Shown: positions 203 through 11,705 of the stretch, piece by piece
How the letters are laid out: every line of letters starts with the position of its first letter
Position numbering within the stretch: position 1 is the stretch's first letter
Assembly: GCA_045105515.1 (NCBI GenBank)
Contig: JBGCDR010000217.1
Location: forward strand, 1-11,802
Direction of reading: 5' to 3'
Source: Oligoflexales bacterium
Lineage (GTDB): Bacteria; Bdellovibrionota_B; Oligoflexia; Oligoflexales; Bog-1112
Length of the DNA: 11,802 nt
Notes under the pieces: generated by a model
Database searches by the model: none
What the model saw: the letters and a program-made list of their open reading frames with translations, nothing else
Told to the model about the DNA's origin: nothing
Program-made: the position numbers and the translations under genes

Positions 203-1360
203 CTAAACATAGGATCCACGCTCGATCTTCTCGAGGATAATCTTCTCAAATATCTGCGGATCTTTTCCATCAACTGAAAAAAAAGCCTGTTGTTCGCATC
301 GCTTACGATTTTCGATAAGCCACTCCAAGATTTTAGCTAAACCCCTATTACGTCTACTTTTGAAGAACGGATCATTTTCAAGTGCGTCCCTCGCCTTTTT
401 GATTGATCTCATCTCACTGGCATCACCAGCAATAACATCATAAGCAAATAGATCATATTTTTTAAGATCCTCAGGAAGCACACCCAAAAATTTTACTTCT
501 GGTGCTGAAAAATCCTTATTTCGAATTAATGAAGCTGCAGACCCTGCCTTAAGAGTCCGATAAATATTTTGCAGAGTATAAGCATCTAGGTCTCCAAAGA
601 AAAAAATAGGAGTTCCGAGCTGATCTTGGATTCTTTTTACCCATCCTCTTACTGCATTGGAAGGAACTCCTTGAGCACCGATCACAATACACTTATGCCG
701 ACGAGTAATACCATTGGCAACAATAGTGTTAGCAGTGCCTTCAGATTCAACTACAAGACAAAAATCAATTTTCTTTTTTGCTGACAGAGTCAGATTTTGC
801 GGACGATTCTTTGGCATAAAGGGAGAGGTCCCTAACTTTGAAAGGTCAATTTCAGCAGTTTCTCCATTAGGCATGGTTTCCGTGACCACCAAATGCTGGG
901 AGTAAGTTTGTCCCCCTCGGTCATTCGCATAACAGTTGAGCTCTTCTCGGTAGCATTCCAAAATTTCGCAGATAAAGTCAATGACACTATCAGATTCGCT
1001 CTGATCGTCGAAATCAAGTGGCTTAAGATCTGGATTCTGCTTCAGTAAACCCTTACAGATATAATACAATTCGCGCTTCGTATTAACCCCTCCGGTACCA
1101 ACATTTCTGAGGAGTATTTCTAGCATAAATATCGCTCTTGACATTTTTTGCACCGAGCCAGCATTCAATTCGGTTTTTACTTTTTTAGAACCTGGAGTTA
1201 GAAACCCAAGACCTGGTGAATAAAGCGAGTTATCAAGAGAACATTTTGTTGCTGCTAGAACAGGTCTCTTGGCCTTTTCAAGATCGTTGAGGATCTTATC
1301 ACAAAGCTGCTTTGATATATAAGGGATTTCCGATTGTTTTCTAGTTGCATATTTTACCAT
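203..1360 (-). CDS. top6A: DNA topoisomerase VI subunit A (Spo11/Top6A family)
   Basis: Catalytic Tyr motif NTKRELYY, TOPRIM Glu in VVESEG, GAQGVP, DxD motif FGDLDAY, FLGV and C-terminal KRCEQQA. Lies directly downstream of top6B. The ATG at 1360 is preceded by GGAGAGGT; the ORF track start at 1381 is an alternative. Confidence 0.93.
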   Translation of the reverse strand: MVKYATRKQSEIPYISKQLCDKILNDLEKAKRPVLAATKCSLDNSLYSPGLGFLTPGSKKVKTELNAGSVQKMSRAIFMLEILLRNVGTGGVNTKRELYYICKGLLKQNPDLKPLDFDDQSESDSVIDFICEILECYREELNCYANDRGGQTYSQHLVVTETMPNGETAEIDLSKLGTSPFMPKNRPQNLTLSAKKKIDFCLVVESEGTANTIVANGITRRHKCIVIGAQGVPSNAVRGWVKRIQDQLGTPIFFFGDLDAYTLQNIYRTLKAGSAASLIRNKDFSAPEVKFLGVLPEDLKKYDLFAYDVIAGDASEMRSIKKARDALENDPFFKSRRNRGLAKILEWLIENRKRCEQQAFFSVDGKDPQIFEKIILEKIERGSYV

Positions 1361-1392
1361 GACAGACTCGCACCTCTCCATTAATAATCAAA

Positions 1393-3585
1393 CTATTTTT
1401 TAGCTTTTTTCTTTGTTTTCTTTTTAGAGTTTTGCTTGGATTGTTTCTTAACAACTGGCTTCTTTTTGCTTGCAGAATTTTTTTTCTCCACTCTCTTACT
1501 GGATTTTTTTACTACTTTTTTAGTAGGTTTCTTACTCGTCTTATTCGGTGCGTTCTTCGTTTCCTTTTTACCAGCCTTTTTCACTACTTTTTTTGATGGT
1601 TTCTTGTTGGTCTTTTTCTCAACTTTCTTAGCTACCTTCTTGCTGTTCTTTTTCTCAACTTTCTTAGTCACCTTCTTGCTGGTCTTTTTCCCAACTTTCT
1701 TAGTCACCTTCTTACCAGCCTTTTTCACTGCTTTTTTTGAGGTACTCTTTTTGGTAGTTTTGTCTTGATTTGCTTTAGATCTCTTTTTACGGATAGCTCC
1801 ACTTTTGCTTTTTTTGCCCTCAGAGCTTGCCACTGTATTCAATTCAGATTCTGCAGTTTGCAATTTAGTCTGATTATCTTGATCGAGCTCATTATCTTCT
1901 TCTTCGCTCTCGAGTAGCGAATCCTCTTCCTGAAACACAGTTAAGCGTTTTTTCTGCCCAGCTAAATGTTCGCTTAGTCGCTCTTCAGCTTTGGCAAGCT
2001 GTTTTTCCGTTTCTTTATGATCCCTGCCGAGTATTTTCTTAAGTCCTAATTCAGCTCGTTCTTTTCGCTTTTTTGGTGCTTCTAAAATGCGACACAAAGT
2101 TTCCACTAGGATAGGGCTAAATTTTTCAATGTGCTGAGTTTTAGCTTCTAATTCTTTAGCTTTGTGCTCACGCTTGAGGTGCCTAGACAATCTCTGGCCC
2201 GCAGTCATCAACGCTCTTCGAATTTCAGTAACCAGATCGTCTGCTGCATCGATGGTTTCTTTAGAGGCATTCTTAAACTTAATAAATGGGGAGATTACAC
2301 TCACTGCCATTATATAGGGTCCTATTGGTAGCAGCCCTCTTGATTGTCTTAATCCATAGCTTTTCCAGTTAACTGAGGTGATTGCTTTTACGATGGCACA
2401 GGCCGACTTATCGAACTGTAGTGGGACTCTGTTTGCAAAACGCAAAACACCCACTGGATTATCGGAGTCACCTGAACGCTCTTGCAAACGAGCAATTGCC
2501 ACTTCAACTTGCACAGGCTTCATATCACATATAGTAGGTTTACGACTCACTACTGAGAAATAATCAGTTGCTCCTAATCTTTGTATACTTAAAGCTAAGG
2601 CATCCTCACCAACAGCCATCACCGACTGTGTTGATGGAGCTCTTAATTGGGTTTTTTGCACCCCTGAAAAAATCTTTTTAAAATCATCATCTTTCAAACT
2701 TGAAATTGTTGCATTTCTACCTTTGCCTTTCCATTGCGCATTACTCAATATTTCGTCAACAACTTTATCACTTACTCGCGAAAATCCTCTTTTCAACCAC
2801 TCACTCAATTTGTACTTATTGAATAAGTGCGCATGAGAAATGAATTCCCCTAACTTCATGGTATGCAAATGAGGTGGTAGTGCAGGAGGAATTGTTGGGA
2901 CTTGCCCGGAAATTCGTTCTATAAATTGAGATTCCATATCTGGAAGCTGATAACGCAAACTCATGTGGGGGTTCAGCAATAGGTTTCCTCTAATATATGC
3001 TAGAATTCCTCCTTCCCCATTTAATTGTAGCCTTCCATCAAATTGAAAACTAACTTTGGTGCCATGAGGTTTGTCCCAAGCCACCATCTCCTTATTCTTG
3101 ATTATACCTTTATTATTTTTGAGGTCAGTCACCACCATGCAGGATAGTGCTTTACGTTGACCTTTACATTTCGTCAGGATTTTTGCGCCTGTTGCCGATG
3201 TCTGTAGAGCCCAAGTGGTTGCTGCGGAAATACCAATTCCTTGCTGACCTCGCGAGCATCGCCCCTTCCCAAACTTAGAAGAGGCAAGGTACTCACCAAA
3301 AACCATGGGAACCTGATTACTGTCTAAACCGGGACCATTGTCTTCCACGCTCAGCTCAATCCTATCCGTATTCCGCAGTGCACCTGCACCAAGCTTTTTA
3401 ATAATGATTTCGATTTCGGGAAGGATTTGGTGATCTTCACAGGCATCAAGAGAATTATCAACCGCCTCTTTCAAAGTCGTCAAAACTGCTTTTACAGGCG
3501 AGGAAAACCCTACCTGTTGTAGGTTTTTGGCAAAATACTCTGCGGTACTACTTTTTGTAATTGCTGATACTTTTTTCTTAGCCAT
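1393..3585 (-). CDS. top6B: DNA topoisomerase VI subunit B with acidic patch and long Lys-rich C-terminal tail
   Basis: AEYFAKNLQQVGF N-terminus; GHKL ATPase motifs KEAVDNSLDA, EDNGPG, SRGQQGIG and HGT; transducer motifs RFANRVPL, VNWKSYGL and FKNASKE. Confidence 0.96.
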   Translation of the reverse strand: MAKKKVSAITKSSTAEYFAKNLQQVGFSSPVKAVLTTLKEAVDNSLDACEDHQILPEIEIIIKKLGAGALRNTDRIELSVEDNGPGLDSNQVPMVFGEYLASSKFGKGRCSRGQQGIGISAATTWALQTSATGAKILTKCKGQRKALSCMVVTDLKNNKGIIKNKEMVAWDKPHGTKVSFQFDGRLQLNGEGGILAYIRGNLLLNPHMSLRYQLPDMESQFIERISGQVPTIPPALPPHLHTMKLGEFISHAHLFNKYKLSEWLKRGFSRVSDKVVDEILSNAQWKGKGRNATISSLKDDDFKKIFSGVQKTQLRAPSTQSVMAVGEDALALSIQRLGATDYFSVVSRKPTICDMKPVQVEVAIARLQERSGDSDNPVGVLRFANRVPLQFDKSACAIVKAITSVNWKSYGLRQSRGLLPIGPYIMAVSVISPFIKFKNASKETIDAADDLVTEIRRALMTAGQRLSRHLKREHKAKELEAKTQHIEKFSPILVETLCRILEAPKKRKERAELGLKKILGRDHKETEKQLAKAEERLSEHLAGQKKRLTVFQEEDSLLESEEEDNELDQDNQTKLQTAESELNTVASSEGKKSKSGAIRKKRSKANQDKTTKKSTSKKAVKKAGKKVTKKVGKKTSKKVTKKVEKKNSKKVAKKVEKKTNKKPSKKVVKKAGKKETKNAPNKTSKKPTKKVVKKSSKRVEKKNSASKKKPVVKKQSKQNSKKKTKKKAKK
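1558..1737 (-). repeat. Coding tandem repeat: 15 consecutive KKxx tetrapeptides, including three 36-bp (12-aa) higher-order copies
   Basis: Translation runs KKAV KKAG KKVT KKVG KKTS KKVT KKVE KKNS KKVA KKVE KKTN KKPS KKVV KKAG KKET. Positions 1606-1713 hold three imperfect 36-nt units, each with (t/c)caactttcttag(t/c)(c/t)accttctt on the plus strand. Confidence 0.9.
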
Positions 3586-3760
3586 TAGCCTCTCATACTA
3601 TAAATGGGCACTTTCCCTATTGATGAATATCGTGTAAAAGTTGTCTTATTAGCTGCTCTATTGAAGCATGCAAGCACTACTACCATCTAATTTTTGCTTA
3701 AAATTCCCTACTGGGAGAATTGGATATAACCAACCTTATCTAAAACACAGGAGTAACTCC

Positions 3761-4339
3761 ATGGCTATTAACTTACCTGAGCTTCCCTACGCCCTTGATG
3801 CCCTTGCACCTCATATCTCCAAGGAGACTCTTGAGTTCCATTATGGCAAGCACCACCAAGCTTACGTAACAAATTTGGGCAAGCTTATAAAGGGAACTGA
3901 GTTCGAAAATGCCTCCTTAGAAGAAATTGTCTTAAAATCTGAGGGCGGAGTTTTTAACAATGCCGCTCAAATCTGGAACCACACTTTCTATTGGAATAGC
4001 TTATCACCAAAAGGTGGCGGAGAACCAAACGGAAAAATTGCTGACGCTATTAATAAGGACTTTGGTTCTTTTCAATCCTTCAAGGAAGCTTTTACTAAGG
4101 CAGCTGCTACTCTATTTGGTTCAGGCTGGGCATTTCTGGTCCAAGATGCAAGTGGAACATTGTCTATTACTCAGGAACCCAATGCAGGTAACCCCTTAAC
4201 TAAGGACCTAAGTCCCATCTTAACTTGTGATGTATGGGAGCATGCCTACTATATTGACTACAGAAATGCTCGCCCGAAATATATTGAAACCTTTTGGAAC
4301 CTCGTCAACTGGGACTTTGCATCAGGTAATTTGAAATAG
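3761..4339 (+). CDS. sodB: Superoxide dismutase [Fe]
   Basis: LPELPY, HYGKHH, Fe-type [14 protein letters not shown] and DVWEHAYY metal-ligand motifs. SD AGGAG at 3749-3753 supports the ATG at 3761 rather than 3668. Confidence 0.96.
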
Positions 4340-4342
4340 ATC

Positions 4343-5398
4343 TTAAGGCGTTTCCTTCTTTGGAGTTTCCAACTCCACCTCAAATTCTGGTTTTGCATCC
4401 CTGCTTATAAGCTCGAGGACAACTTGAGATATTGGCTTTTTATCATAGATAACCTGGTAGACGGCATTCGTAATTGGAGTGCTAACATTTAGACTCTTTG
4501 AGAGTTTCTGTGCAGAAAGCGTCGTCGTCACCCCTTCCGCGACAGATCCAATTTGACCTAGCGCCTCATCCAAAGAACCCCCTTGTCCCATAATGTACCC
4601 AACCGAAAAATTGCGACTTTTTTCCGAAGAGCAGGTCAAAAACAAATCACCTACACCGCCGAGCCCCTTAAAGGTAAGTGGGTTTGCTCCCACTGCAACT
4701 CCTACTCTAGTCATCTCTGCCAACCCTCGTGTGATGAGGGTAGCTCTACTATTAGCTTGAAAACCAAGACCAGCACACGCCCCAGCTGCAATAGCAATTA
4801 CATTCTTCATCGCCCCTGCGACCTCAAGTCCGATAGGGTCGTTGGAGGTGTATGCTCTAAACTTTGGTGAATGAAAAACATCTTGAGCCCACTCTGCTCG
4901 CACGGTTACCCTGGAAGCTACTGAAACACCAGTAGGTTGTTTCTTAGCGACCTCAATAGCAAAACTGGGTCCAGATAGGGAAACCATATGGTGAGAGATA
5001 AATGTTCCACAGATTTCAGCCAAAATATCCGAAGGTAGCTTTTCTGTGCCTACTTCAATTCCTTTAGCTGCGCATACTAGCAACTGATCAATATGCATTT
5101 TGTCACTTATTTGCTCTACGACCATCCGCACATATTGAGTAGGAATTGCAATGACAATCGCATCGTATGCCTGGATGGGAGCTTCTTCCAAGCGGGTAAA
5201 AGCTTTTACTCGTGGAGATAGAGATATTTCCTTTAAATATTTAGGATTTATATGCTTACTATTGATACCTTCAGCAACCTCTGGAGACCTTGCCCATATT
5301 TCAACTCGATGTCCCTGACATGCTAAATGTTGGCCAAGGCATGTTCCAAAGTTACCAGCTCCAAGCACCAAAATATGTTGGTTATTTCTTGTTTGCAT
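4343..5398 (-). CDS. gpsA: NAD(P)H-dependent glycerol-3-phosphate dehydrogenase
   Basis: Rossmann VLGAGNFGT, AAKGIE, LSGPSFAIEV, GAMKNVIAIAAG, GLGGVGDLFLTCSSEKSRN and VAEGV. GGAG lies 9 nt upstream of the ATG at 5398. Confidence 0.96.
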   Translation of the reverse strand: MQTRNNQHILVLGAGNFGTCLGQHLACQGHRVEIWARSPEVAEGINSKHINPKYLKEISLSPRVKAFTRLEEAPIQAYDAIVIAIPTQYVRMVVEQISDKMHIDQLLVCAAKGIEVGTEKLPSDILAEICGTFISHHMVSLSGPSFAIEVAKKQPTGVSVASRVTVRAEWAQDVFHSPKFRAYTSNDPIGLEVAGAMKNVIAIAAGACAGLGFQANSRATLITRGLAEMTRVGVAVGANPLTFKGLGGVGDLFLTCSSEKSRNFSVGYIMGQGGSLDEALGQIGSVAEGVTTTLSAQKLSKSLNVSTPITNAVYQVIYDKKPISQVVLELISRDAKPEFEVELETPKKETP

Positions 5399-5451
5399 TT
5401 GTCTAAGCTCCAAAGTGGCGATATACTACAGACCCCGTACCCAAGAAAAAA

Positions 5452-5469
5452 AGGATGTCATGACTTCCT
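5452..5469. promoter_or_regulatory. 18-bp operator-like palindrome in the divergent gpsA/nuoJ intergenic region
   Basis: AGGATGTCA|TGACTTCCT, with 8 of 9 positions pairing and no spacer. Confidence 0.45.
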
Positions 5470-5494
5470 ATTTATCAGTTTTACTCACTATAGT
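5465..5494 (+). promoter_or_regulatory. Candidate sigma70-like promoter for nuoJKLMN-lgt
   Basis: TTCCTA (5465-5470), 18-bp spacer, TATAGT (5489-5494), about 85 bp upstream of nuoJ. Confidence 0.3.
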
Positions 5495-5579
5495 CTTTGG
5501 CTTAGTAGCGGGCTCGATAATACGAGCTTCATCCCGCTTCTTGGCCATGGCTCTTTCCCTCCTTACCTAGGTGTGTTTT

Positions 5580-6128
5580 ATGGATGATTCCTTGATATTT
5601 TACGCGCTCGCCATCTTAAGTGTAATATTTTCGCTCCTGCTTATCTCCCAGAAGCAAGTTGTAAAAGCAACTGTTTATCTATTATTCCACTTGTGTTTCA
5701 CGGCAGGCATCTATGCATATCTTGGAGCCGAGATTGTTGCAGTGATGCAGATTATCCTTTATACCACTGCAATTTTAGCACTTTTTATATTTGCTAGAAA
5801 GCTCTCAAACTTTGAGCTAACATGCAAAGAGGAATTAATAAAACCTGGCAAGTTTGAACTCATAAGCACCTCTTTATTAATCATTGGGATGATAGTTTTT
5901 TCTTGGGCTGGATTCTTTTCGAAGGAACTTGGCTCTAAAACCAGCTCTCATCTTTTAGAAGAAATAAGTATCTTCGACTTTAGCTTACAAATATTCTCAC
6001 GTTTCAAATGGCCCCTTACAGTAAGTTTCCTCTTATTTGTGATGACAATGGTCGCCTGCAAAATCACTAGCAAAAATAGCAATAAAAGCTCTAGTTCAGC
6101 TGAAGGAGGTCCTCTTGGTCCCTATTGA
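5580..6128 (+). CDS. nuoJ: NADH-quinone oxidoreductase subunit J-like (divergent)
   Basis: About 5 hydrophobic segments. AGIYAYLGAEIVAVMQIILYTTAILALFIF matches NuoJ TM2-TM3. Lies directly upstream of nuoK. AGGTG precedes the ATG at 5580. Confidence 0.85.
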   Translation: MDDSLIFYALAILSVIFSLLLISQKQVVKATVYLLFHLCFTAGIYAYLGAEIVAVMQIILYTTAILALFIFARKLSNFELTCKEELIKPGKFELISTSLLIIGMIVFSWAGFFSKELGSKTSSHLLEEISIFDFSLQIFSRFKWPLTVSFLLFVMTMVACKITSKNSNKSSSSAEGGPLGPY

Positions 6129-6417
6129 GCACTACCTCATATTAGCATGTCTCCTATTTACGATCGGAGTGATTGGAGTATTAGTTCGAAAAAATATTTT
6201 TTTTATTTTAATGTCCATTCAATTGATTTTGAATGCAACTAACCTTGTTTTTATAGCTGCTTCAAGGCACATTGGTAATCTTGATGGAGAAGTATTCATG
6301 ATTTTCATTATCGCAATTGCGAGCTGTCAAGCAGCAGTAGGATTATCTATAGTGATTTCACTATTTCGTCAATACCGGTCTATTAATAGTGACTTTTTTA
6401 AAATTTTAAGAGGTTAA
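6115..6417 (+). CDS. nuoK: NADH-quinone oxidoreductase subunit K (E36Q/E72Q variant)
   Basis: 100 aa with 3 TMs: YLILACLLFTIGVIGVLVRKN, ILNA, DGEVF, AAVGL and C-terminal LRG. TTG start after a perfect SD AAGGAGGT; overlaps the nuoJ stop. Confidence 0.95.
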   Translation: MVPIEHYLILACLLFTIGVIGVLVRKNIFFILMSIQLILNATNLVFIAASRHIGNLDGEVFMIFIIAIASCQAAVGLSIVISLFRQYRSINSDFFKILRG

Positions 6418-6438: not shown

Positions 6439-7167
6439 ATGGTCTGCTTGATGCTTTTTTTACCACTATTTGGGGCTGTTATTAGTAACATCATAAATCA
6501 TAAATTCGTCAATACAAGCTTTTATTTTTTTTTATGCTTGCTAGCTTCAGCTTCGTTTTTGACAAGTATTCTGGCTTATATTGACCTTTTTAGACAGGGG
6601 CACCAAGAACTCATATTAGCAAGCATTACTTGGATAAAAATAGGATCTATCAACATTCCTTTTGAATTAATATTTAATCAACTATCAAGTATTATGTGCA
6701 TAGTTGTTACAGGCCTTGGGACCCTTGTCTTTTTTTATACTATATTTGTAAAAAAAGATATAAATGCCCTTTACTTGCGTTTTTTTTCACTTGTTAACTT
6801 GTTGGTTTTTACCCTTCTCATAGCAGTGCTTGCTAACAGCATGCCTGCGTTATTGATCTCCTGGCAAGGAGTGTTTTTTTGCAGTTTTATACTAAGCAAT
6901 CATTATTTTTCTAATAAATATTTATTCCTTAGAAACTCCCGAATTTGTCAACTATTAGAGTTGAGCACAAGACCATTTGTTTATTTATCCAGCTTATCTT
7001 TGAAAATGGATAAATTGGGTATCAACAGGTTGATTAACTCAATCTCTCACCTAATATCGGCATCTAGTGGTGTCACTAGTTTTTCTATGGAAGGAAGTAT
7101 TCAGCGCCATGCAAGCTCCATGATTTTAGGGTTTGTGGTTCTTTTAGTGCTGGCATTCGCAATTTAG
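6439..7167 (+). CDS. nuoL: Internally deleted mini-NuoL (N-terminal TM1-5 fused to C-terminal amphipathic helix and last TM)
   Basis: LPLFGA, TWIKIG beta-hairpin region, FNQLSSIMCIVVTGLG, YLRFF and SWQGVFFCSFIL match the NuoL N-terminus. RPFVYLS...MDKLGINRLIN...GSIQRHASSMILGFVVLL matches the NuoL C-terminus. It is 242 aa against ~610+ typical and sits between nuoK and nuoM. Confidence 0.85.
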   Translation: MVCLMLFLPLFGAVISNIINHKFVNTSFYFFLCLLASASFLTSILAYIDLFRQGHQELILASITWIKIGSINIPFELIFNQLSSIMCIVVTGLGTLVFFYTIFVKKDINALYLRFFSLVNLLVFTLLIAVLANSMPALLISWQGVFFCSFILSNHYFSNKYLFLRNSRICQLLELSTRPFVYLSSLSLKMDKLGINRLINSISHLISASSGVTSFSMEGSIQRHASSMILGFVVLLVLAFAI

Positions 7168-7183
7168 AATCAAAGGAACCAAG

Positions 7184-8767
7184 ATGGATTGGATAAATAA
7201 TCATATTATAACTATAAGCATCACAATTGCATTGATAACATCATTACTTTGTATAGCTGCTCCAAGCTCATTTATAGCTCTTAGAATTAGCCTTGTAGGT
7301 TCCGCAGCATGTTTTTTCTCAGCACTACATATCTGGTACCATTATCAAGCATCATTGGGAAGTATCCAATTTAATGAGTCCTATGAATGGATAGGACTAT
7401 TTGGCATTAGCTATCAGGTGGGAGTGGATGGACTAAACCTTCTATTCATAGTTTTATCAACTTTCTTAACACCTATTGTCATTCTTAGTTTGTGGGACAA
7501 GCAAATTAAGAATAAAAAAATCTTGCTAAGCTTGGTGATGTTTCTAGAAGCTTCCATTTTAGGAGCACTAGCAGCTCTAGATTTGTTCTTTTTTTATTTT
7601 TGTTGGGAAGTCATGATCATCCCCGTATACTTAATCATTGGTTTCTGGGGTGGAAAGAAACGGTTTCAAACTAGTAAAAAATTAATACTCTGTAATGCAT
7701 GCGGATCTATTTTTATGTTTGTCGGCATCATTGCTCTCTATATAAAACATACTGGAGAATTCGGGTTTTATAGTGCCAGCTTGATAGATTTATTGAAAAT
7801 TAATTCTCTAGATTTAAGCACTCAGAAGTGGTTGTTTGCTGCCTTTACTTTTGCTTTTGCTGTGAGAATCCCGGTATGGCCCCTCCACACATGGCTAGTC
7901 TCAGCATACTCACAAGCACCCTTTTTTGGCTCCATCATTCTTTCGGGAGTAGTTCTTAAAATAGCCTGCTACGGATTCTTAAGATTTGTAATCCCCTTAT
8001 TTCCTGAAGCATTTACTTTTTTTGCACCCTCGACATTAATTCTGGCGATAATTGGATTTATCTTTGTAGCACTAGCTGCTTGGAAACAAGAAGATATTAA
8101 GAAGCTAGTAGCATATGCATCAATTTCACATTTGAGTCTCGCTTTTGTCGGCTGTGTGCTTATCAATGGATGTGATATGTCTCCAGAAGCCTTAATGGGT
8201 GCAGTATACAGAATCATAAGTCATGGGATTTCATTTAGTGCACTTTTTATTATTCTATCCAACCTTTACGGTAAAAAATTGAGCTCAAAAACGAATTCCT
8301 GTGAAAAATCACAAAGACTAAATCGCTATTTAAAAGTGGCCGTTATGTTGATCACCCTCGATTGCATGGGAATTCCTGGAACCGGAGGCTTTATTAGTCA
8401 ATTTCTAATATTAAAAGAAATATACACAAGCAGTGGAGTCACAGGAACATTTATAAGCTTAGGTGTTCTTGCTAGTGCTGCTCATATGTTTAAAATCTAT
8501 AAAAAACTACTTAATTCAAAAAATCAAGCTCACACAAACTTAGTTGAGCTATCGATTAGAGAGAAACTACTCTCTATGTCGCTCATCTGTATAGCTCTAG
8601 CTATGGGAATCTATCCTGAGTTAATATTTTCAAAAGTGAGGCCGACCATTGAACATTTTGCGAATAACTATCAGACTTACCTGCTAAGAACAGAAAACGA
8701 ATTAACTAGAGTTCCTAAGCATATAAAAATGGATATTTATACATCTCTTATAAAGGGAGAAAAATAG
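7184..8767 (+). CDS. nuoM: NADH-quinone oxidoreductase subunit M (divergent)
   Basis: GVDGL, DLFFFYFCWEVMIIPVYLIIGFWGG, FAVRIPVWPLHTWL, LKIACYGFLRF, DIKKLVAYASISH, SHG, GIPGTGGF and MGIYP. Confidence 0.93.
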   Translation: MDWINNHIITISITIALITSLLCIAAPSSFIALRISLVGSAACFFSALHIWYHYQASLGSIQFNESYEWIGLFGISYQVGVDGLNLLFIVLSTFLTPIVILSLWDKQIKNKKILLSLVMFLEASILGALAALDLFFFYFCWEVMIIPVYLIIGFWGGKKRFQTSKKLILCNACGSIFMFVGIIALYIKHTGEFGFYSASLIDLLKINSLDLSTQKWLFAAFTFAFAVRIPVWPLHTWLVSAYSQAPFFGSIILSGVVLKIACYGFLRFVIPLFPEAFTFFAPSTLILAIIGFIFVALAAWKQEDIKKLVAYASISHLSLAFVGCVLINGCDMSPEALMGAVYRIISHGISFSALFIILSNLYGKKLSSKTNSCEKSQRLNRYLKVAVMLITLDCMGIPGTGGFISQFLILKEIYTSSGVTGTFISLGVLASAAHMFKIYKKLLNSKNQAHTNLVELSIREKLLSMSLICIALAMGIYPELIFSKVRPTIEHFANNYQTYLLRTENELTRVPKHIKMDIYTSLIKGEK

Positions 8768-8768
8768 C

Positions 8769-10235
8769 TTGAATTTCATACCACAGATCCACCAAGAATT
8801 CATTGATGAATATTTATCTGTATTAGTTCTTTCAATCGGATCTATGATAAATATATTAATCTCTTACAATAAAGATCTAGCAGAGAATACAATATCTAAA
8901 ACCATCTTGTTTTCTTCACTTGGATTCGCTCTGTTCTTTTGTCTACATGGAAGCCTTGGAAATCTATTAGAATACTCTGCCTTCACAAGTCTAATACAAT
9001 GCTTATTAATTACTACAACTCTTACTCTATGTTTCCTAGCATCAAGCTCCCATTTAGATTTATATATCTTTAAATATGATGTTGTTAGTTTACTACTCTT
9101 ATCTCTAGTAGGAATGATAGTTCTAGCCACGACCGATGACCTATTTACAATGTTTTTAGGAATGGAGCTTAGCTTATTAGCACTTTGCGCTCTTTCCGGG
9201 AATATTCGACCAAACCGATTTAACCAAGAAGGGGCTCTAAAGTTTTTTATCCTCGGAAGTTTCGCAAGTTCGATATTTATTTTTGGCTTAGCAATGGTGT
9301 ACGCAAGTACTGGAGAGATACACCTGAATACATTGATTAAGTCCTTAAATGGAACTTCTCAACTAGTTTTATGGGCACGCATGGGCCTTGTAGCTATGAT
9401 CGTAGGCCTCGCTTTTATACTCAATCTTTTTCCTTTTCAACTGTGGGCAGCAGATACTTATGAAGCCTCACCAACAATCATAAGTGCCTATTTATTTATT
9501 TCCTTTAAAGTAATAATTATAAGCAAATTTATTAAGATTTTTGGACTTGGCATGTCTGATTTAGAATCACCGTGGCTACAGATAATGATGCTTTTGGCTG
9601 GAATGTCCCTCATTTTTGGAACTCTACTGTCTCTGGTGCAGACCAATATTAAACGTCTCTTGGCTTACGCAGGTATCAGCCAGGGTGGATATTTAACAAT
9701 GGCAGCAGGGGCATTGTCAACTACAAGGTCTCATGCTAGCGAGTCAATATTGTTTTATCTCATAACATATACCGTGACTTCTATTCTTGCATTTGGGATT
9801 CTGATGAGGTTGGAATCCGAGCAAAAGCAAAATCTCTGCATAGATGACCTGCGAGGCTTAGCTCACACTAAACCTTGGTATGCTCTGGGTTTAACAATCG
9901 CTCTTTTTAGTTTTGCAGGAATCCCACCTACAGCAGGATTTATAGCTAAGTTTATGCTTTTCTCCTCTGCGCTACAAAATCAACAGCAGGTAATTCTTGT
10001 GGTGCTTGCTGCAATTTGTAACGCCATAGCACTATTTGTCTACCTCCGCATTGTCGCTTATATGTATATGCAATATGAACCTAATGGTAAGTTGCTCAAA
10101 TCGAAACTCTTTTTGCTACCAAGTATGATCCTAGTTTTAGCTAGCTTTGCCACGATCCTTCTTGGTACCCTGCTTCCCGGTAAAACCTTTGAATTTATCG
10201 TACCTATGTTAGAATCGAAGCATAGTAATCCTTAA
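8769..10235 (+). CDS. nuoN: NADH-quinone oxidoreductase subunit N (divergent)
   Basis: DLFTMFLGMEL, EGALKFFILGSFAS, PFQLWAADTYEASP, QTNIKRLLAY, SFAGIPPTAGFIAKF and YLRIV. TTG start 1 bp after the nuoM stop, with SD GGGAG upstream. Confidence 0.93.
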   Translation: MNFIPQIHQEFIDEYLSVLVLSIGSMINILISYNKDLAENTISKTILFSSLGFALFFCLHGSLGNLLEYSAFTSLIQCLLITTTLTLCFLASSSHLDLYIFKYDVVSLLLLSLVGMIVLATTDDLFTMFLGMELSLLALCALSGNIRPNRFNQEGALKFFILGSFASSIFIFGLAMVYASTGEIHLNTLIKSLNGTSQLVLWARMGLVAMIVGLAFILNLFPFQLWAADTYEASPTIISAYLFISFKVIIISKFIKIFGLGMSDLESPWLQIMMLLAGMSLIFGTLLSLVQTNIKRLLAYAGISQGGYLTMAAGALSTTRSHASESILFYLITYTVTSILAFGILMRLESEQKQNLCIDDLRGLAHTKPWYALGLTIALFSFAGIPPTAGFIAKFMLFSSALQNQQQVILVVLAAICNAIALFVYLRIVAYMYMQYEPNGKLLKSKLFLLPSMILVLASFATILLGTLLPGKTFEFIVPMLESKHSNP

Positions 10236-10253
10236 TATCCAATGGTAAATTCC

Positions 10254-11081
10254 ATGTATCCAATACTATTCGAATGGAATGGGTTCATTATCCCTGCATG
10301 GCATTTCTTCTATATGCTAGCTGCAATAGCTGGATTATTTTTTCTCTTTCATATAAACCTAAAATGGAACATCGAACTAAATCCCAAGCACCTATCTGGA
10401 CTCTATGCATGTTCTTACATAGGTGGTTATTTTGGTGCCCGCGCACTGTCAATATACATCGATGAATGGAATAAGGTCATAGACTATTCCGATATTTTTT
10501 GGCTGCTATTTTCCTTTGGTCCAATGACTTTTTATGGAGGGATGTTTGGTGCTAGCGCAGGAGCAATCCTGTTTGCTAATATTAAAGGAATTCATAAATT
10601 AAAGATTCTTGATCTAGGCATACCATGCGGATTACTTGGGCTTTGCATTGGCCGAATTGGATGCTTTTTAAATGGAGATGATTACGGCATTGCAATTTCC
10701 GAAATGATGACAGGTCAAACTCCATGGTGGGCCGTGACCTTTTCTAACCATTACGATAAAATTCCCAGGGTTCCTATCCAGATCATTGAAAGCTCATTGG
10801 TATTTATTCTTGTGATATCAACTTATGTTTTAAAAAATAGATTTGCAAATAAATTTTCATCAGGACTTTGCGGTTACATTTTGATAATTTCATATGCTCT
10901 AATTAGATTTTTATTAGAGTATTTCCGAGGTGATTTGAGGGGATGGGTGATCGAGGGTCACCTCAGCTCCTCTCAATTTATAAGCCTAGCTATCGTCACA
11001 ACACTAGGCCCAATTTTTATTTTCTTCAAACGAAAAAGAAAGAATTATAGATCACAAATGCCTGGCTCGTCGCAGCCATAA
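10254..11081 (+). CDS. lgt: Prolipoprotein diacylglyceryl transferase family protein
   Basis: MYPILF N-terminus, FGAR, MTFYGG, IGRIGCFLNGDDYG, PIQIIES, YALIRFLLEYFRGD and SSSQFIS. The ATG at 10242 is an alternative start. Confidence 0.9.
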   Translation: MYPILFEWNGFIIPAWHFFYMLAAIAGLFFLFHINLKWNIELNPKHLSGLYACSYIGGYFGARALSIYIDEWNKVIDYSDIFWLLFSFGPMTFYGGMFGASAGAILFANIKGIHKLKILDLGIPCGLLGLCIGRIGCFLNGDDYGIAISEMMTGQTPWWAVTFSNHYDKIPRVPIQIIESSLVFILVISTYVLKNRFANKFSSGLCGYILIISYALIRFLLEYFRGDLRGWVIEGHLSSSQFISLAIVTTLGPIFIFFKRKRKNYRSQMPGSSQP

Positions 11082-11572
11082 CCATCATCTTCTTCAATAG
11101 GTTCTCCATTTTTTGAGAAGAACAGACCTTGGATTGAGCCAAGACCAACACACCATCCTGAATATCTTGTCACACCAACAGACAGCTTCATATCTAGGGT
11201 TGGATTGATACTTGCGCCTACATCAATCGTTCCTCCAACTGCATCTCCGAGCATAAGACCAACTTCAGCTTTTCCCATTACGGAAAGAAACTCTTCTAGG
11301 CTAAACCCAACACCGGCAGCTTCTACAGTACCCTCAGCTCTACAAACTCCAAGTTTTGCGCCCAGGCCAGCCATATGCACATCTAGGTCGCGTGTATATG
11401 AATTACCAACTACATCTTCACAAGTTACAACTGCATCACCTTTTCCAAACTCAGCAACTATAGCTACGGATTTTACATTGTAGTCCATTGAACAGTGGAC
11501 AAGTGCAGCCTGTGATTGCGCAGCTGCCATTAAACCAGCAGACATTAGCAATGAAGATAATACCTTTTTCAT
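11045..11572 (-). CDS. Hypothetical secreted protein (Sec signal peptide, 6 Cys, Gly-rich beta-type body, acidic tail)
   Basis: SD GGAGGT 4 nt before the ATG at 11572. MKKVLSSLLMSAGLMAAAQSQA is a typical signal peptide ending in SQA. The ORF is 175 aa. Confidence 0.8.
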   Translation of the reverse strand: MKKVLSSLLMSAGLMAAAQSQAALVHCSMDYNVKSVAIVAEFGKGDAVVTCEDVVGNSYTRDLDVHMAGLGAKLGVCRAEGTVEAAGVGFSLEEFLSVMGKAEVGLMLGDAVGGTIDVGASINPTLDMKLSVGVTRYSGWCVGLGSIQGLFFSKNGEPIEEDDGYGCDEPGICDL

Positions 11573-11705
11573 ACCTACCTCCAAAAAATAATTGTTAATT
11601 TTCATAGATACTTTAAGATGAGGACTATCTCAATTACAACTTAAAAGAGCTTTAGTGATAGAACAGAGTTGTCTAACAATTGATAAAACCCTTTGGTAGC
11701 TTAAT

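Follow-up and report, generated by a model that had tools for sequence, protein, structure and literature searches.

An orphaned nuoJ-nuoK-mini-nuoL-nuoM-nuoN block with an internally deleted NuoL in an Oligoflexales lineage

Whether the lateral helix of NuoL/ND5 acts as a coupling rod or as a strap has been debated for a decade, and mutagenesis now favours the strap. The transverse helix has been described as purely structural, a strap, in a study that also refers to Belevich 2011, to Zhu and Vik 2015 and to older work on truncation of the helix (PMC9802314), and a review presents helix HL as universally conserved, with a size that follows the number of antiporter-like partners (PMC8165549). 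According to the same review, MbhI of the membrane-bound hydrogenase and the HL parts of MBS and Mrp are small subunits, with a short lateral helix flanked by TM segments (PMC8165549). Orphan nuoJKLMN genes are also already known: in Gilliamella and other Orbaceae, these five genes are kept group-wide without NADH-oxidising or quinone-reducing subunits, and they are presented by the authors as remnants of genome reduction (PMC11325843).

Here we describe a block of the same five genes in an Oligoflexales bacterium, belonging to a phylum different from that of Gilliamella, in which NuoL persists only as a 242-aa stump (hereafter mini-NuoL or mini-L). In the Oligoflexales block, NuoL is cut down, nuoM has been lost in one species and the replacement of complex I by Na+-NQR can be traced within one family. 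Whereas the engineered helix mutants have the helix removed or loosened in an active enzyme whose NuoL core is kept (PMC9802314), mini-NuoL represents the reverse situation, within an arm devoid of redox subunits. In this lineage nature has run the converse experiment: NuoL has lost its ion channel, and the most tightly constrained part of the protein is the anchoring end of the strap. Compared with NuoL/ND5/Nqo12 (E. coli 3RKO/7Z7S chain L), mini-NuoL is alike over TM1-5 (E. coli residues 3-163), the end of HL and TM16, and differs by having about 400 residues fewer, a Gln in place of the TM5 Glu and no complex I around it. The MbhI layout is shared, as judged from TM prediction only, by a 107-aa form (one TM, helix, one TM) found in a relative; mini-L differs from MbhI in being a recent deletion from NuoL, with a connector whose length is independent of the number of partners. 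With MrpA (6z16 chain A), the similarity is weak and N-terminal (E 6.3e-5, residues 39-163), the NCBIfam models give mini-NuoL 25-29 bits against cut-offs above 900, and phylogenetically the protein is a NuoL of the local complex I operon. Like Mrp antiporters, the mini-L block would be a redox-independent multi-subunit membrane module, but no MrpB, E, F or G genes are found among the ORFs of the window, i.e., the whole stretch of 11,802 nucleotides analysed. Our literature search returned no paper joining Na+-NQR with nuo remnants of complex I and no relevant paper on a truncated NuoL with helix HL.

The mini-NuoL gene and its homology

The features of the locus are the following:

4343..5413, minus strand: gpsA, divergent left border of the relic block
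5571..6128, plus strand: NuoJ relic, 185 aa; Pfam Oxidored_q3 at 60.2 bits, below all NCBIfam NuoJ cut-offs
6115..6417, plus strand: NuoK relic, 100 aa; the two conserved Glu (E36 and E72 in E. coli) both replaced by Gln
6439..7167, plus strand: mini-NuoL, 242 aa, in-frame internal-deletion derivative of NuoL
6439..6909, plus strand: mini-NuoL residues 1-157, NuoL TM1-TM5 and beta-hairpin (Proton_antipo_N), TM5 Glu replaced (SWQG)
6910..7068, plus strand: mini-NuoL residues 158-210, unconserved connector, predicted helical and partly amphipathic (former lateral helix)
7069..7164, plus strand: mini-NuoL residues 211-242, conserved end of the lateral helix and TM16 anchor
7184..8767, plus strand: NuoM, 527 aa; TM5 Glu and TM8 Lys kept, TM7 Lys replaced by Arg, TM12 Glu by Gln
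8769..10235, plus strand: NuoN, 488 aa; TM5 Glu, TM8 Lys and TM12 Lys kept, TM7 Lys replaced by Ile
10242..11081, plus strand: lgt, beginning 6 nt after nuoN

The mini-NuoL gene lies between nuoK and nuoM, as expected for nuoL, and its ATG is preceded 6 nt upstream by AGGA. At this composition, a run of 243 codons without a stop has a probability of 1.6e-7, the other five frames containing 13-26 stops, and the ORF is therefore not a product of chance. The initial annotation, made from the sequence alone, had assigned residues 1 to about 157 to NuoL TM1-TM5, and all three approaches used here agree with it: the Pfam model Proton_antipo_N (PF00662) matches residues 65-102 with 36.3 bits (cut-off 24.5), profile-profile comparison with the full-length NuoL of six relatives aligns residues 1-160 with NuoL 11-169 (probability 99.5%, E 2.9e-22), and E. 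coli NuoL is matched over its residues 3-163. By BLASTP against the 649-aa NuoL of a relative, mini-NuoL aligns in two pieces, residues 1-160 to 1-158 and residues 152-239 to 558-647; since the first piece ends at 158 and the second resumes at 558, some 400 NuoL residues are missing, corresponding approximately to TM6-TM15, that is, the antiporter core with the broken helices and their Lys. The in-frame loss of the core had thus been correctly recognised, its size being closer to 400 residues than to the 370 initially proposed. Likewise, the expected pair of split terminal matches was obtained by BLASTP, whereas Pfam gives Proton_antipo_N only, with no match to Proton_antipo_M (PF00361) in mini-NuoL. 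Whole-protein NuoL cut-offs of NCBIfam are not reached either (93.5 vs 556 bits for NF005141, 81.2 vs 407.5 for TIGR01974), only positions 4-159 of the 615 of the NuoL model being covered. Together, these data show that the 242-aa protein descends from a full-length NuoL that a single in-frame deletion shortened by some 400 residues, with a junction near residues 158-160. A split gene, with the NuoL core encoded elsewhere, was considered and rejected: this genome (G000), a 461-contig draft 90.9% complete with 4.8% estimated contamination, contains three Proton_antipo_M genes, namely NuoM, NuoN and a DabB adjoining DabA, and because the sole third gene is this DabB a separate NuoL core is ruled out.

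The C-terminal part was examined with an HMM built from the last 110 alignment columns of the NuoL of six relatives and searched against 30,325 stop-to-stop ORFs of at least 50 aa from the whole G000 genome. Similarity of the tail to the NuoL C-terminus had been proposed from the letters alone, and mini-NuoL indeed ranks first of all these ORFs (E 1.4e-8, residues 191-239), the next one having an E-value of 0.025. The demonstrable similarity starts at about MDKLGINRLIN (residue 191 on), as initially read, whereas the RPFVYLS stretch read in the same way is not alignable, the similarity of residues 158-190, i.e., the first half of the lateral helix, to NuoL being not significant. As a result, of the two elements thought to be kept, the final TM is retained and the lateral helix only by its end; the helix proper, lying in the connector, has no invariant position. 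Among 40 related genomes, a separate tail match (E <= 0.01) was obtained in 18, with pieces starting at residues 120-194 and ending at 236-240; in 17 of them it lies inside a 641-687-aa frame that also carries the N-terminal match, about 1.4-1.7 kb downstream of it, and in the remaining one (G037) it is on a contig other than that of the N-terminal match.

The same architecture was sought, and found, in other ORFs of about 240 aa: a sister species (G001) encodes, in identical synteny, a mini-NuoL of 236 aa with 30% identity, and a third lineage (P0008), known from a 119,790-base Logan contig, one of 240 aa (34% identity), while a family relative (G004) encodes a 107-aa micro-L made of one TM, helix and TM16, with a recognisable tail motif. 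P0008 was the mini-NuoL among 30 short matches (<300 aa) examined from 150 matches listed; the other 29, discarded as mini-NuoL candidates, are N-terminal or frameshifted pieces of ordinary NuoL with an intact GWEG. Scans of metagenome contigs with an alignment, and then with P0008, gave no further relative, a scan of genome contigs gave the G001 contig only, and word-indexed searches yielded one partial NuoL (near lengths), one full NuoL (longer) and nothing shorter, with no mini-NuoL among them.

Across the three mini-NuoL proteins, invariant positions amount to 15 of 32 in the tail (residues 211-242, motif GV-SF-M-GS--RH---M-LGF), 19 of 157 in TM1-5 and 0 of 53 in the connector (158-210); the strongest constraint thus falls on the tail anchor, and of the NuoL lateral helix only the end, with TM16, is demonstrably kept. 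The TM5 Glu, at least 90% conserved in a 41-row NuoL alignment, is replaced in all three (SWQG in G000, SIQG in P0008, SFLG in G001), the TM5 motif of G000 reading SWQGVF versus GWEGVG in relatives. TM prediction places no segment between residues 157 and 220, and the hydrophobic moment is highest at residues 187-212.

Two properties of the connector speak against a strap: it has no invariant position, and, where a precise strap would be expected to adapt, it is not shorter in G001, the distance from TM5 to TM16 being about 63-65 residues in G000 and G001 alike although the latter has no NuoM.

The AlphaFold2 (AF2) model of mini-NuoL has a mean pLDDT of 85.5, falling to 48-54 at residues 161-190, when a 41-row alignment made mostly of full-length NuoL is used, and of 38.5 with the three mini-L alone. 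In a Foldseek search, the 41-row model is matched best by NuoL chains from E. coli, over about 160 columns and with an rmsd of about 2 Å. Prediction of a complex between NuoM (8-row alignment) and mini-L (41-row) gave scores of 0.04 and 0.05, against a mark of 0.32, which are taken as evidence neither for nor against binding.

Loss of complex I and presence of Na+-NQR

Mini-L belongs to an orphaned NuoJ-NuoK-mini-L-NuoM-NuoN block, amounting to 1542 residues, in an Oligoflexales lineage. The genome-wide family searches for the missing complex I covered NuoH, NuoB, NuoD and NuoF; none of these four was found in G000 (90.9% complete), G001 (94%) or G004 (88%), all drafts, whereas all four are present in the relative G011. 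Overall, NuoH was found in 29 of the 41 genomes searched, G000 and G001 not being among them, and NuoD, NuoB and NuoF in one of five genomes tested (G011). In G011, G013 and five other relatives, the genes follow the order nuoA-H-J-K-L-M-N, flanked by gpsA and lgt in G011 and G013, where the flanks were fetched. In G000, nuoA and nuoH are absent from the syntenic gpsA-nuoJ interval: they have been deleted from an ancestral gpsA|nuoAHJKLMN|lgt locus. An NqrB-type gene (PF03116) is present in 6 of 16 family genomes, which are exactly the six without NuoH, and in none of the ten with NuoH; G000 itself carries a complete nqrABCDEF-apbE operon on contig C77, and COX1 occurs in all 16. The lineage therefore carries Na+-NQR instead of complex I, a clean and datable case of this transition within one family with intermediate stages of decay preserved. 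It also documents for a second time, in a phylogenetically independent group, that exactly nuoJKLMN are retained, which is puzzling.

The loss series among kin runs from J-K-L'-M-N through J-K-L'-N (nuoM is absent from G001) and J-K-L''-N to nothing. The block is dispensable in kin, an observation bearing against the strap reading: in G006 only orf264 lies between gpsA and lgt (gpsA|orf264|lgt), and neither G005 nor G006 yielded a nuoN-type gene. The nuoN-lgt order is shared by G001 and G011, and G004 has one extra ORF in between; this orf273 and the orf264 of G006, both beside lgt, have no similarity to each other. In the window, 6 nt separate nuoN and lgt, and lgt is thus probably co-transcribed with the relic. 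Scans for promoters and terminators were no better than shuffles (18 promoter-like sites vs 23 expected, 7 terminator-like sites vs 4.7). An 86-aa ORF upstream of nuoJ (5327-5587) and its 85-aa G001 counterpart were treated as spurious, since they do not resemble each other and have no Pfam match.

In complex I, the charged axis formed by NuoK E36 and E72 and, in NuoM and NuoN, by TM5 Glu, TM7 Lys, TM8 Lys and TM12 Glu/Lys is functionally important. In G000 this axis is broken, with NuoK Q36/Q72 (read from a gap-free alignment to E. coli NuoK, 3rko_K), NuoM TM7 Arg and TM12 Gln, and NuoN TM7 Ile; in addition, the conserved NT and PFE motifs are lost in the NuoJ relic. The TM2 Glu of NuoK is a Gln in all three relics, and G004 NuoN has lost its TM8 Lys to Gln. 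The NuoN TM5 Glu/Asp and TM12 Lys are present in 3/3 relics, and G001 NuoN retains all four canonical charged residues, so that some ion conduction stays possible.

Sequence divergence follows a distinct regime in the relic block. Between G000 and G001, GpsA (94%), TopoVI-A (97%) and SOD (94%) are nearly identical, while identity falls to 64% for NuoK, 51% for NuoN, 42% for NuoJ and 30% for mini-L; in a genus pair whose complex I is intact, the values are 93% for NuoK, 89% for NuoL and 89% for NuoM, against 84% for GpsA. All relic ORFs are nevertheless open (P = 1e-3 to 1e-16), with dN/dS values, at saturated dS, of about 0.09 for NuoK, 0.18 for NuoN and 0.36 for NuoJ. The block hence evolves much faster than its neighbours, yet remains open and constrained. 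In a NuoN tree, whose forks are open, the G004 branch reaches a length of 6.68; the G004 relic may group with genus g1 or apart from it, the truncation having one or two possible origins.

Possible roles of the relic arm

Our preferred reading, to which we give a probability of about one half, is that mini-NuoL is the strap or anchor subunit of a relic membrane arm without redox partners. The five relic proteins would still be made and would come together as the contiguous distal section of the former arm, in which mini-L would conduct no ions and act as a strap, with its TM1-5 beside NuoM, a loose helical connector running along NuoM and NuoN, and the tail motif and TM16 anchored close to NuoN and NuoK. 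Because buried carboxylates and lysines have been neutralised lineage by lineage, such an arm would most likely not pump. Selection may maintain these proteins foldable, assembled and non-leaky and keep the operon translated through to lgt, and a residual role for the arm is possible. G004 goes further in the same direction, keeping one TM, the helix and TM16 only.

A possible, although not probable, explanation is that the block has no role of its own and that its frames stay open through its position in an operon upstream of the essential lgt, nonsense and frameshift mutations being polar; misfolding membrane proteins would moreover be harmful, leaving in-frame deletions (the L core, the whole nuoM) as a tolerated route of decay. 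The short nuoN-lgt gap and the tight spacing throughout the block, the stepwise losses across kin, the strongly accelerated rates and the lost catalytic charges all fit this explanation, as does the view of the Gilliamella authors of their own nuoJKLMN as remnants (PMC11325843). Polarity alone, however, leaves the protein sequence free, yet NuoK is still 64% identical with a dN/dS of about 0.09, the mini-L tail is 47% invariant in three lineages at saturated synonymous sites, and the block persists in at least four lineages (G000, G001, P0008 and G004). If its retention is functionless, the locus exemplifies operon decay by in-frame deletions tied to an essential downstream gene.

Beyond mini-L itself, a doubtful but broader proposition is that the distal arm NuoJ-K-L-M-N constitutes a self-sufficient module, repeatedly kept after the loss of redox subunits, in Orbaceae and now in Oligoflexales, for a redox-independent job; the tail strap would be the one part of NuoL that this module cannot do without. 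If true, the job could be, e.g., exchanging ions in a cell that uses Na+-NQR or organising the membrane, and the full L, the 242-aa mini-L and the 107-aa micro-L would show, as deletions made by nature, which parts of NuoL the arm requires.

Co-option of NuoJ-K-L'-(M)-N as an Mrp-like, redox-free cation/proton exchanger or gated proton path appears unlikely. Such a module would be useful where the NADH dehydrogenase pumps Na+, as with the Na+-NQR present here, and it would agree with the key residues remaining in NuoN (TM5 and TM12 in 3/3 relics, all four in G001). None of the 95 Gilliamella genomes has lost these five genes (PMC11325843), proton conduction is described for antiporter-like modules in isolation (PMC11496545), and deactive complex I is described as performing Na+/H+ antiport (PMC3464577). 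Against this stand the Gln at the NuoK TM2 position in 3/3 relics, the replacements in G000 NuoM (TM12 Glu to Gln) and NuoN (TM7 Lys to Ile) and in G004 NuoN (TM8), the expendability of nuoM (G001) and of the whole block (G005, G006), and a window without MrpB/E/F/G-like neighbours.

The initial annotation had proposed a natural pump architecture lacking L, that is, a working complex I deprived of the NuoL channel only and moving fewer protons per NADH. The canonical K-L'-M-N order and the retained clamp end agree with it, but NuoH/B/D/F were not found in three independent drafts from two genera, the locus has lost nuoA and nuoH by deletion, the genome encodes NQR and the charges are stripped, which brings this interpretation close to refutation: mini-NuoL sits in the charge-stripped leftover arm of an enzyme replaced by Na+-NQR and is hence not part of an "L-less pump".

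An assembly artefact or a contaminant contig fusing the two ends of a normal nuoL, conceivable in a 461-contig draft with 4.8% estimated contamination, can be dismissed: the junction, for which a check against misassembly had been advised, is bridged identically, without joints and with 0 differences, by one contig covering 5500-8800 in each of three per-run assemblies (3/3 runs of one study, possibly the source of this DNA), orthologous genes exist in G001 and P0008, and the flanking genes are 91-97% identical to those of the Oligoflexales sister genome. The deletion in mini-NuoL is real and old.

Gene layout and origin of mini-NuoL

The window spans the full length of contig C217 (11,802 bases), which belongs to a 6.29-Mb draft genome, G000 (461 contigs, 90.9% complete, estimated contamination 4.8%). 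From NuoJ through lgt, its genes are tightly packed on the + strand and include a 242-aa NuoL-derived protein, mini-NuoL.

Features of the window
Left part: topoisomerase VI A and B, Fe/Mn superoxide dismutase, gpsA
5571-6128, +: NuoJ
6115-6417, +: NuoK
6439-7167, +: mini-NuoL, 242 aa
7184-8767, +: NuoM
8769-10235, +: NuoN
10242-11081, +: lgt, starting 6 nt past nuoN

The topoisomerase VI A/B pair (203-3585, - strand) is bacterial, and 97% and 91% identical to that of the sister species G001, with synonymous sites saturated. The superoxide dismutase (3668-4339, + strand) carries ~34 residues N-terminal to its Pfam domain (~56 in the G001 copy), which may be an export signal.

Mini-NuoL keeps TM1-5 and the C-terminus of NuoL and has lost the antiporter core, as the initial annotation had proposed. 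Indeed, a Pfam scan retrieved Proton_antipo_N alone, leaving the core unmatched, and residues 1-160 align with NuoL 11-169 (hhalign, six full-length NuoL of relatives, probability 99.5%). With an HMM built from the last 110 alignment columns of these six proteins, mini-NuoL ranks first of the 30,325 genomic ORFs searched (E 1.4e-8, residues 191-239; runner-up E 0.025). BLASTP against the 649-aa NuoL of a relative gives a two-piece match (1-160 to 1-158; 152-239 to 558-647), from which it follows that ~400 residues are absent. Among the 40 related genomes searched, 18 gave a separate match to the tail (E <= 0.01); in 17 of these it lies 1.4-1.7 kb downstream of the N-terminal match and within the same 641-687-aa frame, and in the remaining one (G037) on a different contig.

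By simple hydropathy, the residues up to 153 hold five TM segments, 157-220 hold none and 221-242 form one, with an amphipathic peak at 187-212. The AF2 model (41-row alignment; mean pLDDT 85.5) exceeds 95 for most of residues 1-150, falls to 48-54 for 161-190 and reaches 72-94 for 191-242, with predicted helices at 169-189, 193-216 and 221-241; Foldseek places E. coli NuoL chains at the top of its matches to this model (~160 columns, ~2 A). Residues 158-190 have no significant alignment with NuoL, and the assignment of 'RPFVYLS' to the NuoL C-terminus could not be demonstrated. A separate NuoL core was not found elsewhere in G000, the third Proton_antipo_M gene being a DabB adjoining DabA. 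This pair (DabB NuoL-like, 491 aa) is divergent from a LysR regulator on contig C283 (L003:1-3661) and represents a DAB-type inorganic carbon uptake system; the bacterium is probably host- or prey-dependent.

Complex I and Na+-NQR in the family

The syntenic locus of relatives G011 and G013 runs gpsA, nuoA-H-J-K-L(649 aa)-M-N ... lgt; the nuoA-H-J-K-L-M-N order recurs in five further relatives. The membrane subunits hence form a separate operon in this family, from which genus g1 (G000 and G001) has lost nuoA and nuoH. NuoH, NuoD, NuoB and NuoF were all found in G011 and in none of the draft genomes G000, G001 and G004 (another genus). Among the 16 family genomes, 10 carry NuoH and the remaining 6 carry an NqrB-type gene, none having both, and COX1 is present in 16/16. 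In G000, the NqrB gene lies within a complete nqrA-B-C-D-E-F operon followed by apbE (contig C77:2286-9313). From this gene content we conclude that the clade respires via Na+-NQR and that the nuo genes of the window are the remainder of complex I. The family thereby offers a clean series of NQR-for-complex-I replacement, and the locus a natural deletion experiment on NuoL.

G000 also encodes TLC/NTT nucleotide transporters, with six strong paralogues (contigs C74, C181, C166, C40, C393 and C190) and further matches that are weaker, and 4 to 9 TLC matches occur in each of the 5/5 family genomes tested. This set is consistent with an energy-parasitic or predatory way of life, under which complex I loss may be tolerated.

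Decay and constraint in the remaining block

The block is J-K-mini-NuoL(242)-M-N in G000 and J-K-mini-NuoL(236)-N in G001, where nuoM is gone. In G004, J-K is followed by a 107-aa ORF and then N, and in the relative G006 a single unrelated ORF lies between gpsA and lgt. The 107-aa ORF has one N-terminal TM, then a match to NuoL 565-645 including the SF-x-x-G-x-x-R tail motif (E 1.5e-3, measured within that locus only). Directly after nuoK (L015:7230-7370), and out of frame with this ORF, 41 aa bear a faint resemblance to the TM3-4 loop of NuoL (HMM positions 101-130, E 0.11); the stretch may be a frameshifted remnant, weakly hinting that the 107-aa form derives from mini-NuoL by further loss. 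The G+C of the G004 nuo genes is only 23-30%.

Charged residues carrying the proton relay of complex I have been replaced in these blocks. In NuoK of G000, the residues matching E. coli positions 36 and 72 are both Gln (gap-free alignment); across the three blocks, the TM2 Glu of NuoK became Gln in 3/3 and the TM3 Glu in 2/3. The TM5 Glu site of mini-NuoL holds Gln or Leu. In NuoM of G000, Arg replaces the TM7 Lys and Gln the TM12 Glu, and in NuoN of G000, Ile replaces the TM7 Lys; NuoN of G004 shows TM8 Lys to Gln, and that of G001 retains all four key charged residues.

Between G000 and G001, protein identity is 91-97% in the left flank versus 64% for NuoK, 51% for NuoN, 42% for NuoJ and 30% for mini-NuoL, an order that is reversed in a genus pair whose complex I is intact (NuoK 93%, NuoL 89%, NuoM 89%; GpsA 84%). 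The dN/dS values (K 0.09, N 0.18, J 0.36) are rough because synonymous sites are saturated; for mini-NuoL dN is 0.75 and dS was not computable. The probability of these ORFs staying open by chance is 1e-3 to 1e-16. In the NuoN tree, both g1 terminal branches measure 0.9 and match the branches between families in length. The step in divergence coincides with the gpsA|nuoJ border and not with the end of the nuo block: lgt is 65% identical, a converging ORF of unassigned kind (11045-11605) 72% and the genes left of nuoJ 91-97%.

Invariant positions among the three mini-NuoL proteins number 19/157 in TM1-5, 0/53 in residues 158-210 and 15/32 in 211-242, which makes the tail motif and TM16 the best-kept part. 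The lateral helix itself is retained in character only.

Possible role of mini-NuoL

NuoJ, K, L, M and N are physical neighbours in complex I. Beyond the established descent of mini-NuoL and gene content, we infer that it would act as a strap-and-anchor subunit of an assembled, redox-less, probably non-pumping J-K-mini-NuoL-M-N subcomplex. For the transverse helix of NuoL/ND5, a purely structural role is now accepted (PMC9802314). Helix HL is described as a universal feature of the complex I superfamily, and MBH carries it on a small subunit, MbhI (PMC8165549). When free, antiporter-like modules conduct protons and may dissipate the proton-motive force (PMC11496545); this would account for selection on assembly as well as on the neutralisation of buried charges. 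Against a strap stand the unconserved connector (0/53), its unchanged length in G001 despite nuoM loss and the absence of the block from relatives that live without it.

Possible, albeit doubtful, is a pure relic whose frames are held open by polarity on lgt, as the 6-nt spacing from nuoN would favour. A retention of exactly nuoJKLMN, read as a remnant, is reported in all 95 Gilliamella genomes (PMC11325843), the likeness to the window being J-K-L-M-N kept and other nuo genes absent. J-N retention itself is thus already in print; no report of a 242-aa NuoL built in this way was found in the literature searched, most subscription journals being outside its scope. Co-option as an ion module is unlikely. 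The locus is not a new pump: the 'L-less pump' of the initial annotation, with the NuoL clamp kept and the proton channel deleted, is overturned by context (NuoH, NuoD, NuoB and NuoF not found, nuoA and nuoH lost, nqr operon present) and is highly improbable.

Mini-NuoL is not an artefact, an explanation of negligible probability. A possible misassembly at the junction was checked in 3/3 runs of one study, which may itself be the source of this DNA; in each run one contig spans 5500-8800 without differences, gaps or alternative joints. Other short NuoL-type ORFs, which the initial annotation had suggested seeking, do exist: the G001 orthologue (236 aa) has synteny identical to G000, and HMMER, run exhaustively on 1.84 billion representatives, gave one further end-to-end match, P0008, from a third lineage (240 aa, 34% identity). 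Of the 30 short matches fetched among the 150 matches listed, the other 29 are fragments of ordinary NuoL. On contig C308 of G000 (6604-6834, - strand), a weak match to mini-NuoL 146-224 (E 6.7e-4) contains two TGA stops and is probably due to chance, since the six-frame view holds no open frame.
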